A program made the position numbers and the translations under genes. The notes beneath the pieces are model-generated. The model ran no database searches. It saw only the letters and a list, made by a program, of their open reading frames with translations, and was not told the origin of the DNA. From Escherichia coli (GTDB lineage Bacteria; Pseudomonadota; Gammaproteobacteria; Enterobacterales; Enterobacteriaceae): DNA of 64,000 nt. The stretch is taken from the NCBI RefSeq assembly GCF_009931435.1, contig NZ_CP043414.1; one strand, written 5' to 3'. The stretch's first letter is position 1. Each line of letters starts with the position of its first letter. Positions 13,233-25,533 of the stretch are shown in pieces.

Positions 13233-13685
13233 TTATTCCTTACCCAGTAATGCCTGCAGATCCTGCTTTAAAGAAGACATTTTATTCGCGTATTTCTCTT
13301 TGTTTTCCGCATCTTCAATCAGCTGAACAATCGTTTCGGAAAGTGTTTTACCGCGACGCTGCGCCAGACCAGCCAGACGTTGCCAGACAATAAATTCCAG
13401 ATCGATCGATTTTTTGCGCGTATGCTGGTGTTCCGCATTAAAATGGCGCTTTCGTCTGGCCCGAATGGTCTGCTTCATGCGATTGACCAGTTCCGGATTC
13501 ATATGCTTGTCAATCCAGCCATTTACCAGCACGGGTTCATTTTCCAGCGAGAGCAACACATCGACGGCTTCCTGGGCGGCACTGGCTTCTATGTAACGGG
13601 TGATTAACTCCCCTTCGCGGTGCTTCTTCACCAGATACTTCCATTTCCAACCGCTTTCAAGATTTTCAAGTTGTTGATATTTCAT
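13233..13685 (-). CDS. matP: Ter macrodomain organiser MatP
   Basis: 150-aa ORF recognised as MatP (YcbG). Confidence 0.92.
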
Positions 13686-13870
13686 AGCGATCTCAATGTT
13701 ACCGTGTAACTCTTTACAGAATATCAGCTTTTTAGGCCAGTGAAGAAAAGAATCTCCATCCTGTGAGCTTTAACGCCCATGCCAGGAGTATTGTCGGTGC
13801 TTTCTACGTGTGCTGCAGTGCCGGTTACGGTATAATCGCGGCTTTGACAACAGACTAAAAAACATCAACT

Positions 13871-15631
13871 TTGACCATTACGAAACTTGCATGGCGTGAC
13901 CTGGTTCCTGATACCGATAGCTATCAGGAAATATTTGCTCAGCCACATTTGATTGACGAAAACGATCCTTTATTCAGTGATACTCAACCGCGACTGCAAT
14001 TTGCGCTGGAGCAGTTGCTGCATACGCGAGCATCCTCCTCTTTTATGCTGGCGAAGGCCCCGGAAGAGTCTGAGTATCTGAATCTTATTGCCGATGCCGC
14101 GCGTGCGCTACAAAGCGATGCAGGCCAACTGGTGGGCGGTCACTATGAGGTTTCCGGCCACACCATCCGCTTACGTAACGCAGTGAGTGCAGATGATAAT
14201 TTTGCGACTTTAACGCAAGTTGTCGCTGCCGACTGGGTAGAAGCGGAACAACTCTTTGGCTGCCTGCGCCAGTTTAATGGTGACATTACCCTGCAGCCAG
14301 GTCTGGTGCATCAGGCAAATGGCGGTATTCTCATCATCTCTTTGCGTACACTGCTGGCGCAACCTCTGCTGTGGATGCGGCTGAAAAATATCGTTAACCG
14401 CGAGCGTTTTGACTGGGTTGCGTTTGATGAGTCCCGCCCTCTCCCCGTCTCTGTGCCTTCGATGCCATTGAAGCTGAAAGTCATTCTGGTAGGCGAACGC
14501 GAATCATTAGCTGATTTCCAGGAGATGGAACCAGAGCTTTCAGAGCAGGCTATTTATAGCGAATTTGAAGACACTCTGCAGATTGTCGATGCGGAGTCAG
14601 TAAGCCAGTGGTGTCGCTGGGTGACATTGGCCGCCAGACATAATCACTTACCTGCACCGGGAGCGGATGCCTGGCCGGTACTTATCCGCGAAGCAGCACG
14701 CTACACCGGTGAACAAGAAACACTTCCGCTTAGCCCGCAGTGGATCCTCCGCCAGTGTAAAGAGGTCGCCTCCCTGTGCGATGGCGACACCTTCTCCGGC
14801 GAGCAGCTAAACTTAATGCTGCAGCAGCGTGAATGGCGTGAAGGTTTCCTCGCTGAACGCATGCAGGATGAGATCCTTCAGGAGCAAATCCTGATTGAAA
14901 CCGAAGGCGAACGCATCGGGCAAATTAACGCCCTTTCGGTCATTGAATTTCCGGGTCATCCGCGCGCTTTTGGCGAACCTTCTCGCATTAGCTGCGTTGT
15001 ACATATTGGCGATGGTGAATTCACTGACATCGAACGCAAAGCGGAGCTTGGCGGCAATATCCATGCGAAAGGGATGATGATCATGCAGGCGTTCCTGATG
15101 TCGGAACTTCAGCTTGAGCAACAGATCCCCTTCTCAGCATCGCTGACATTTGAGCAGTCATATAGCGAAGTGGATGGCGATAGTGCCTCAATGGCTGAAC
15201 TCTGCGCCCTGATAAGCGCCCTCGCCGATGTGCCGGTGAATCAGAGTATTGCTATCACAGGTTCAGTCGATCAATTCGGTCGCGCCCAGCCAGTCGGTGG
15301 TTTAAATGAGAAAATCGAAGGCTTCTTTGCTATTTGCCAGCAACGTGAGTTAACGGGGAAACAAGGTGTCATTATCCCCACTGCTAACGTTCGCCATTTA
15401 AGTCTTCACAGTGAACTGGTGAAAGCGGTAGAAGAAGGCAAATTCACCATCTGGGCAGTAGACGATGTGACTGACGCACTGCCGTTATTATTAAATCTGG
15501 TGTGGGATGGCGAAGGCCAAACGACGCTGATGCAAACCATCCAGGAACGTATCGCGCAAGCATCGCAACAGGAAGGACGTCACCGTTTTCCATGGCCATT
15601 ACGTTGGCTGAACTGGTTTATTCCGAACTGA
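13871..15631 (+). CDS. ycbZ: Lon-like protease YcbZ
   Basis: 586-aa ORF starting at a TTG codon; recognised as YcbZ. Confidence 0.88.
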
Positions 15632-15661
15632 TCGGACTTGTTCAGCGTACACGTGTTAGCT
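15626..15661. promoter_or_regulatory. fabA operator region: FadR site (aactgatcggacttgtt) and adjacent FabR palindrome (agcgtacacgtgttagct)
   Basis: Sequence matches the fabA FadR site as I recall it. It overlaps the ycbZ stop codon and sits about 40-75 nt upstream of the fabA ATG. Confidence 0.7.
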
Positions 15662-15699
15662 ATCCTGCGTGCTTCAATAAAATAAGGCTTACAGAGAAC

Positions 15700-16218
15700 A
15701 TGGTAGATAAACGCGAATCCTATACAAAAGAAGACCTTCTTGCCTCTGGTCGCGGTGAACTGTTTGGCGCTAAAGGCCCGCAATTGCCAGCACCGAACAT
15801 GCTGATGATGGACCGTGTCGTCAAAATGACCGAAACGGGGGGGAACTTCGACAAAGGGTATGTTGAAGCAGAACTGGATATCAATCCGGATCTGTGGTTC
15901 TTCGGATGCCACTTCATTGGCGATCCGGTTATGCCGGGATGCCTGGGCCTGGACGCAATGTGGCAGCTGGTAGGGTTCTACCTCGGCTGGCTGGGCGGCG
16001 AAGGTAAAGGCCGCGCACTGGGTGTTGGCGAAGTGAAATTCACTGGTCAGGTTCTGCCGACAGCGAAAAAAGTGACCTACCGTATTCACTTTAAACGCAT
16101 TGTTAATCGTCGTCTGATTATGGGTCTGGCAGATGGCGAAGTGCTGGTTGATGGTCGTCTGATCTATACCGCCAGCGACCTGAAAGTCGGTCTGTTCCAG
16201 GATACGTCTGCCTTCTGA
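15700..16218 (+). CDS. fabA: 3-hydroxydecanoyl-ACP dehydratase/isomerase
   Basis: 172 aa from [19 protein letters not shown]...; the track ORF has a 66-aa 5' extension. Confidence 0.95.
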
Positions 16219-24326: not shown

Positions 24327-24423
24327 ATCGTCACTTTTACTCTAAGAAAATTGTTGCGCATTATAGCTAATAAGCGCGTCATGTCATAAAGTTGAGGGCT
24401 TATTTTCATTTGAGGACCGCACC

Positions 24424-25533
24424 GTGGCGACATTAACCCGGCTTTTTATTCATCCTGTTAAATCGATGCGCGGCATTGGTCTTACACATGCTCTGGCAGA
24501 TGTCAGTGGTCTGGCCTTCGATCGCATCTTTATGATCACGGAACCTGACGGTACGTTTATTACCGCTCGCCAGTTTCCCCAGATGGTACGGTTTACTCCT
24601 TCACCTGTGCATGATGGCTTGCATCTCACCGCACCAGATGGCAGTAGCGCATATGTTCGTTTTGCTGATTTCGCAACACAAGACGCACCAACCGAAGTTT
24701 GGGGCACACATTTTACCGCGCGAATTGCGCCAGACGCGATCAACAAATGGTTAAGTGGATTTTTCTCCCGCGAAGTGCAATTGCGCTGGGTGGGGCCACA
24801 AATGACCCGGCGCGTGAAACGCCACAACACTGTACCTCTGTCATTTGCTGATGGCTATCCTTACCTTCTTGCTAACGAAGCCTCGTTACGTGATCTCCAA
24901 CACCGTTGTCCGGCCAGTGTAAAAATGGAGCAATTCCGCCCCAATCTGGTGGTTTCCGGCGCGTCAGCCTGGGAAGAAGATAGCTGGAAAGTGCTTCGTA
25001 TTGGTGATGTGGTGTTTGATGTGGTTAAACCTTGTAGCCGCTGTATTTTCACCACCGTCAGCCCAGAAAAAGGGCAAAAACATCCGGCAGGCGAACCATT
25101 AAAAACATTGCAATCTTTCCGAACAGCCCAGGATAACGGCGATGTCGATTTTGGTCAGAATTTAATTGCCCGTAATAGTGGCGTGATTCGCGTTGGCGAC
25201 GAGGTGGAAATTCTTGCAACGGCTCCGGCGAAAGTTTACGGCGCAGCTGCCGTGGACGATACCGTCGACGCCGCGCAGCAACCGGACGCAAATGTAGATA
25301 TTGACTGGCAAGGGCAGGCATTTCGTGGAAATAACCAACAGGTTCTGCTGGAGCAATTAGAAAATCGGGGAATTCGTATCCCTTATTCTTGCCGCGCGGG
25401 CATTTGTGGAAGCTGCCGTGTTCAGCTTTTAGAAGGCGAAGTCACCCCGCTCAAAAAATCAGCAATCAGCAATGATGGCACCATTCTTTGCTGTAGTTGT
25501 GTGCCGAAGACTGCGCTTAAACTAGCGCGTTAA
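24424..25533 (+). CDS. ycbX: MOSC-domain protein with C-terminal 2Fe-2S ferredoxin domain
   Basis: 369-aa ORF with a GTG start; C-terminal CxxxxCxxC...C motif; recognised as YcbX. Confidence 0.9.

Follow-up and report, generated by a model that had tools for sequence, protein, structure and literature searches.

UUG and GUG are canonical alternative start codons that are read by the initiator tRNA and are generally weaker than AUG, with the UUG of cya and the GUG of lacI as examples. The infC gene, which encodes IF3, is autoregulated through an unusual AUU start, a non-canonical codon that is discriminated against by IF3. Bases adjacent to the start codon can be considered within the extended codon-anticodon model, according to which a U at -1 and an A at +4 could add pairing to the initiator tRNA through its A37 and U33. 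Finally, leadered mRNAs without a Shine-Dalgarno sequence are reportedly translated through an unstructured, A/U-rich initiation region, as is said to have been described by Scharff et al. in 2011 and likewise by Saito et al. in eLife in 2020.

The window analysed here, a stretch of 64,000 nucleotides of Escherichia coli DNA (contig NZ_CP043414.1), encompasses the genes ycbZ and ycbX, which start with TTG (13871-13873, + strand) and GTG (24424-24426, + strand), respectively. Both codons had been pointed out in an initial annotation of the window, together with the statement that the lengths of the two ORFs match the expected proteins only with these starts. Both are indeed present, and the resulting ORFs are identical to the RefSeq coding sequences of ycbZ (13871-15631, + strand; 586 aa), specifying a LonC-like protein that combines a LonB-like AAA with a Lon_C domain, and of ycbX (24424-25533, + strand; 369 aa), specifying a protein with MOSC_N, MOSC and 2Fe-2S ferredoxin domains. 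The RefSeq chromosome of E. coli strain 2020CK-00188, which is 100 % identical to the window over positions 13600-15700, served as the annotation reference; across this same segment, the identity to almost every other complete E. coli genome is 95-99 %. In K-12 MG1655, ycbZ (b0955, 1016539-1018299) and ycbX (b0947, 1006491-1007600) were shown to have the same start region sequences, the same first codons and the same lengths. The TTG and GTG starts are thus part of the standard K-12 annotation and already known, and their identification as such is not new. We consider it probable that both codons represent true starts, that the start of ycbX is an ordinary one, and that ycbZ starts with a low-rate, Shine-Dalgarno-less UUG that is under purifying selection.

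YcbZ has been described as an uncharacterised Lon-like protein connected with translation (PMC8848927, PMC7686311). Cells in which ycbZ is inactivated are resistant to several agents, including erythromycin (PMC7686311), and ribosome stalling has been reported at the last two codons of the gene, Pro585-Asn586, a numbering that agrees with the TTG start (PMC8848927). Residues 140-547 of YcbZ matched LonC of Meiothermus taiwanensis (PDB 4fw9/4fwd; E = 2e-57), and the Pfam domains AAA_32 and Lon_C were identified; for the first 139 residues, no relative with a solved structure or a Pfam description was found. YcbX was shown to contain the Pfam domains MOSC_N, MOSC and Fer2 and to match mARC1 (PDB 6fw2). 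The functions of these two proteins have no bearing on the start-codon question. At the 3' end of ycbZ (15602-15631, + strand), the last five codons displayed a high synonymous-codon identity of 0.77, a value based on a small sample. The fabA gene (15700-16218, + strand) is located directly 3' of ycbZ, and this adjacency was also observed in distant loci (L083, L085-L087, L089, L091 and L092), which fits the reported ycbZ-fabA operon; among the distant loci with enough flanking sequence, the exception was L090, which is derived from a small-genome record (CP145875.1).

Both codons represent the first possible start following an in-frame stop, and the conserved protein sequence begins directly after them, with N-termini that are conserved from residue 1-2 onwards. 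Moreover, the aligned position in ycbZ and ycbX orthologs was found to be occupied by start codons only, save for a single ycbX locus with a 1-nt indel, indicating that the start at this position is not a chance feature. For ycbZ, the comparison encompassed 80 Enterobacteriaceae species (70-96 % protein identity) and ten more distant orthologs. The nearest upstream in-frame stop is a TAA (13856-13858, + strand) located five codons 5' of the ycbZ start, and in 60 of the 80 species the upstream stop was found within four to six codons of the start. Between this stop and codon 27, the TTG is the sole ATG, GTG or TTG codon in frame. The first in-frame ATG is situated far downstream, as had been noted previously, at a distance of 58 codons rather than the approximately 57 given at the time (codon 59; 14045-14047, + strand).

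If the ycbZ start were mis-annotated, translation would commence at this ATG or at one of two internal TTG codons (27 or 49), with everything before it constituting an untranslated leader. The lack of a Shine-Dalgarno sequence before the TTG would fit such an arrangement, as would the absence of a peak at the annotated start among those in vivo Ribo-RET values that are tabulated alongside INRI-seq. However, the downstream candidates are also devoid of a Shine-Dalgarno sequence, just 77 % of species possess Met59, with 23 % lacking it, and the position of the first ATG varies from codon 45 to codon 170 across the 80 species. Residues 2-25 are conserved at the protein level with a pattern of synonymous substitution, and orthologs with 45-56 % identity, obtained by searching a 1.8-billion-protein library, could be aligned from query residue 1-8 onwards. 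An AlphaFold2 model of YcbZ based on 28 orthologs (mean pLDDT of 88) predicted four helices within residues 1-60 at a pLDDT of 79-95, with Met59 placed after these confidently modelled helices and inside a predicted beta-strand (residues 58-62). In addition, INRI-seq, performed in vitro for K-12, detected initiation at the annotated TTG in all five replicates (PMC9825163, Table S2), and the study does not list any in-frame internal ycbZ site. Based on conservation, the structural model and INRI-seq, a downstream start for ycbZ was rejected, and we regard it as extremely improbable.

The same INRI-seq data set provides an indication of initiation strength. Expressed as RPF units on transcript CPM, the signal amounted to ~9 on 154 for ycbZ, compared with ~130 on 58 for fabA, ~2000 on 68 for ompA and ~41 on 653 for uup. 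The ycbZ signal is therefore low relative to fabA and ompA and similar to that of uup, indicative of a weak, though not extreme, initiator. For ycbX, the signal at the annotated start was very low and exceeded the threshold in only two of five replicates (PMC9825163, Table S2). The in vivo Ribo-RET data (Meydan 2019), as tabulated in Table S2 of the INRI-seq study, contain no peak at the start of either ycbZ or ycbX, for which low expression alone may account. N-terminal peptides of YcbZ and YcbX were not found in the N-terminomics supplements of PMC13245402 and PMC11005335. Two additional in vitro signals are given in INRI-seq Table S3, namely an out-of-frame GTG at +106 within ycbZ (13977-13979, + strand; three of five replicates) and a TTG located 14 nt 5' of the ycbX start and overlapping its Shine-Dalgarno sequence (24410-24412, + strand; four of five replicates); both are absent from the Ribo-RET data in their tabulated form.

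The aligned start codon of ycbZ was shown to be TTG in all 80 Enterobacteriaceae species. Among the ten distant orthologs, TTG was found in six (L082, L083, L085, L086, L088 and L089), ATG in L087 and L090, and GTG in L091 and L092. In L082, L083 and L085, a TTG followed by A is present at the aligned position despite N-terminal extensions introduced by the gene callers, and the triplet in front of it is ACC in L082 and ACT in the two others; in L086, L088 and L089, the gene callers themselves had placed the start at ACT TTG A. The TTG and the next two bases (AC) were invariant in alignment A1. The flanking U(-1) is shared by 90 % of species or more. A(+4) is invariant and is retained even though distant orthologs differ in their second residue (Thr, Ser, Asn or Ile). 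An A at +4 is enriched across bacterial genes in general (PMC5850271), and this base does not, for that reason, represent specific evidence for ycbZ.

The significance of the invariant TTG was assessed against silent sites of the same gene in an alignment of 81 sequences. None of the 62 invariant fourfold-degenerate codons retained a single third base, none of the 26 invariant Leu positions retained a single codon, and the internal TTG codons of ycbZ in the window were TTG in just 12 % of species. Silent sites are thus saturated, yet the start codon is fixed at its first base, where A or G would also allow initiation, indicating that this base is held by selection. Among the other neighbouring genes, 19 could be checked, and 18 of these have an ATG that is constant, or nearly so, across the loci; the GTG of ycbX is exchanged for other start codons. 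For the remaining gene, yccS (~8278, + strand), the majority of the 72 related loci have no start codon aligned with the annotated ATG, and no Shine-Dalgarno sequence precedes it (+0.4 kcal/mol); this may reflect a variable N-terminus or a misplaced start. Comparison within E. coli was uninformative, as 4990 of 5425 genomes share the 80-nt ycbZ start region at an identity of 99 % or more.

Upstream of ycbZ, a TATAAT (13831-13836, + strand) that is conserved in the 81 aligned sequences represents the presumed -10 of a ycbZ(-fabA) promoter. It ends 34 nt 5' of the TTG, and at 33-35 nt in the distant orthologs L082, L083 and L088. The conserved -10 places the presumed transcript start near 13843, which implies a leader of ~28 nt (13843-13870, + strand) that is A-rich, unstructured and without a Shine-Dalgarno sequence. 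A simple sigma-70 consensus scan did not return a full -35/-10 pair for ycbZ. The sequence CGTGTG (13807-13812, + strand) is conserved at the location where the -35 of this promoter would fall, amid poorly conserved surroundings, and may represent an activator site. Given the position of the TATAAT, which sets the putative transcript start, and the UUG codon, ycbZ would not be a leaderless mRNA, a class that usually starts with AUG, and this option was discarded.

No Shine-Dalgarno sequence was found for ycbZ, the best duplex with the anti-Shine-Dalgarno sequence in the 20 upstream bases being +0.4 kcal/mol, which is tied for the weakest among 21 neighbouring genes. This state extends to all 80 species (mean of +0.27 kcal/mol, range -1.5 to +1.8 kcal/mol), none of which carries a Shine-Dalgarno sequence at this position. 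The start region is furthermore unstructured, with an MFE of 0.0 over 13851-13891 and a cross-species mean of -1.3 kcal/mol for positions -25 to +25. From the putative transcript start onwards, the leader nucleotides are strongly conserved; the intergenic sequence between the TATAAT and a conserved stretch close to matP is mostly not conserved. Codons 2-25 (13874-13945, + strand) were shown to be under the strongest synonymous constraint within the gene, with a synonymous-codon pair identity of 0.68 compared with 0.48 on average over the gene (sd 0.048), ranking first among 561 windows of 24 codons.

Further elements were observed within the leader and the early codons. An in-frame mini-ORF, TTG ACA ACA GAC TAA (13844-13858, + strand), is present in the leader of Escherichia. 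Coupling through this mini-ORF was rejected, as other genera possess TTTACA at this site and ~68 of the 80 species lack a TTG at the position; it is probably not functional. A 9-bp hairpin is located in codons 12-21 (13905-13930, + strand), where the synonymous constraint is at its highest; it is followed by ATATTTGC and was flagged as terminator-like. Two of its nine pairs are broken in ~40 % of 76 species, and covariation was detected at the terminal pair only. RNAalifold analysis of the leader and early coding region of 76 sequences did not return any conserved pairs, an Rfam search gave no match below E = 2, and MFE z-scores for the leader and early coding region were unremarkable. A structured cis-regulatory RNA leader for ycbZ was accordingly rejected, given the lack of conserved pairs and of an Rfam family and the disruption of the E. 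coli hairpin in other species.

The invariance of the TTG region might alternatively be due to an overlapping element, rather than to selection on initiation strength. Such an element could be an mRNA site bound by a regulatory RNA or protein, a transcription factor site in the DNA, or a promoter that drives the divergent matP gene. The conserved region indeed forms a single block from ~13844 to 13945, which includes leader bases and synonymous positions without an obvious bearing on start strength. A secondary promoter is known to be located somewhere 5' of matP (PMC4161252), and ycbZ mRNA is listed among MazF-processed transcripts in a 'MazF-regulon' table, with cleavage reported at a leader ACA situated 9 nt 5' of the TTG (PMC5001579). 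This ACA corresponds to 13862-13864 (+ strand) and is present in many, though not all, related species. The consensus scan, however, did not detect a promoter-like site overlapping the start on either strand of 13650-13950, and the searches for an Rfam family and for conserved secondary structure in this region were negative. ACT-TTG-A is also retained in L085 and L086, which lack matP upstream (in L086, no upstream gene was called), and the block begins at the putative transcript start, consistent with a role in initiation at the mRNA level. An overlapping element is therefore considered an unlikely cause of the observed conservation.

Another reading goes beyond a fixed weak start and considers the UUG, the Shine-Dalgarno-less leader and codons 2-25 as a dedicated translational control element. 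We deem this doubtful, to much the same degree as the overlapping element. Such a control element could tie synthesis of the translation-linked, Lon-like YcbZ to the state of the initiation machinery, or could alternatively be bound by a trans-acting RNA or protein.

Under the preferred explanation, in which the UUG of ycbZ is a low-rate start that is held by purifying selection, ribosomes would load onto the leader without Shine-Dalgarno pairing, presumably owing to the single-stranded state of this region. The bases on either side of the UUG, U(-1) and A(+4), could lengthen the pairing with the anticodon loop of the initiator tRNA, and the outcome would be inefficient initiation at a low rate. 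Purifying selection would fix the UUG, the absence of a Shine-Dalgarno sequence, the leader and the first 25 codons throughout the Enterobacteriaceae and in most of the distant orthologs. The likeliest reason for this fixation would be that synthesis of YcbZ must stay low or tightly set, a selected trait that we infer from the sequence comparisons. The earlier proposal that weak initiation codons may limit expression of both proteins is thus plausible for ycbZ, for which the conserved TTG, the conserved lack of a Shine-Dalgarno sequence and the small in vitro peak would be consistent with a weak start that is selected for; it is unsupported for ycbX.

The GTG of ycbX is the first start following an in-frame TAG at 24364, and the first ATG corresponds to codon 15. 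A Shine-Dalgarno sequence, GAGGA (24412-24416, + strand), is located 7 nt 5' of the start, and its duplex energy of -5.9 kcal/mol is typical among the 21 neighbouring genes; a purine-rich GAGG, GGAG or AGGG is retained at this position in relatives. The Pfam profile MOSC_N matched residues 1-116 of YcbX with profile positions 1-118 of 119, implying that a start at Met15 would truncate the domain. The GTG start (24424-24426, + strand) is supported by RefSeq, by the aligned codons and by MOSC_N, with an in vitro INRI-seq signal in two of five replicates. Across 70 related species in which no more than 10 kb separate ycbX from ycbZ, GTG occupies the aligned position in 47, ATG in 21 and TTG in one, with a 1-nt offset in the remaining locus. 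This codon consequently appears to drift freely among the allowed starts, as expected for an ordinary true start, without a sign of selection for weakness.

Selection of the GTG to hold the MOSC protein at a low level, in line with the limited expression suggested in the initial annotation, could draw on the generally lower strength of GTG relative to ATG and on the very low INRI-seq signal of ycbX. Such selection is nevertheless difficult to reconcile with the free turnover of the codon, as ATG is found in 30 % of the related species, and with a normal Shine-Dalgarno sequence. We consider it quite improbable, less so than a downstream start for ycbZ and more so than an overlapping element, and a weak start that limits expression of ycbX is unsupported by these comparisons.

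The ycbZ gene represents a clean natural case of a UUG that appears to be kept by selection without a Shine-Dalgarno sequence, with the GUG of ycbX, which has drifted to AUG, situated 9 kb away. It may serve as a handy test case for Shine-Dalgarno-independent initiation at a weak codon, and for the question of why a low level of the poorly understood YcbZ might matter. As a finding, the conserved Shine-Dalgarno-less UUG is a small by-product of the comparison and a modest curiosity.

Similar to leadered mRNAs without a Shine-Dalgarno sequence, ycbZ possesses an A-rich leader that does not pair with the anti-Shine-Dalgarno sequence and is almost devoid of predicted structure. Unlike these mRNAs, which usually start with AUG, ycbZ starts with UUG, and in its case the sequence itself, rather than the composition alone, is conserved. 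The gene may also be likened to infC, in that its non-AUG start seems to be kept by selection, as would befit a weak codon that serves a purpose; in contrast to the AUU of infC, however, the UUG of ycbZ is a canonical start codon. Compared with the annotated UUG and GUG genes of E. coli, ycbX exhibits no difference, whereas the UUG of ycbZ adds the conserved absence of a Shine-Dalgarno sequence and invariance across 80 species.
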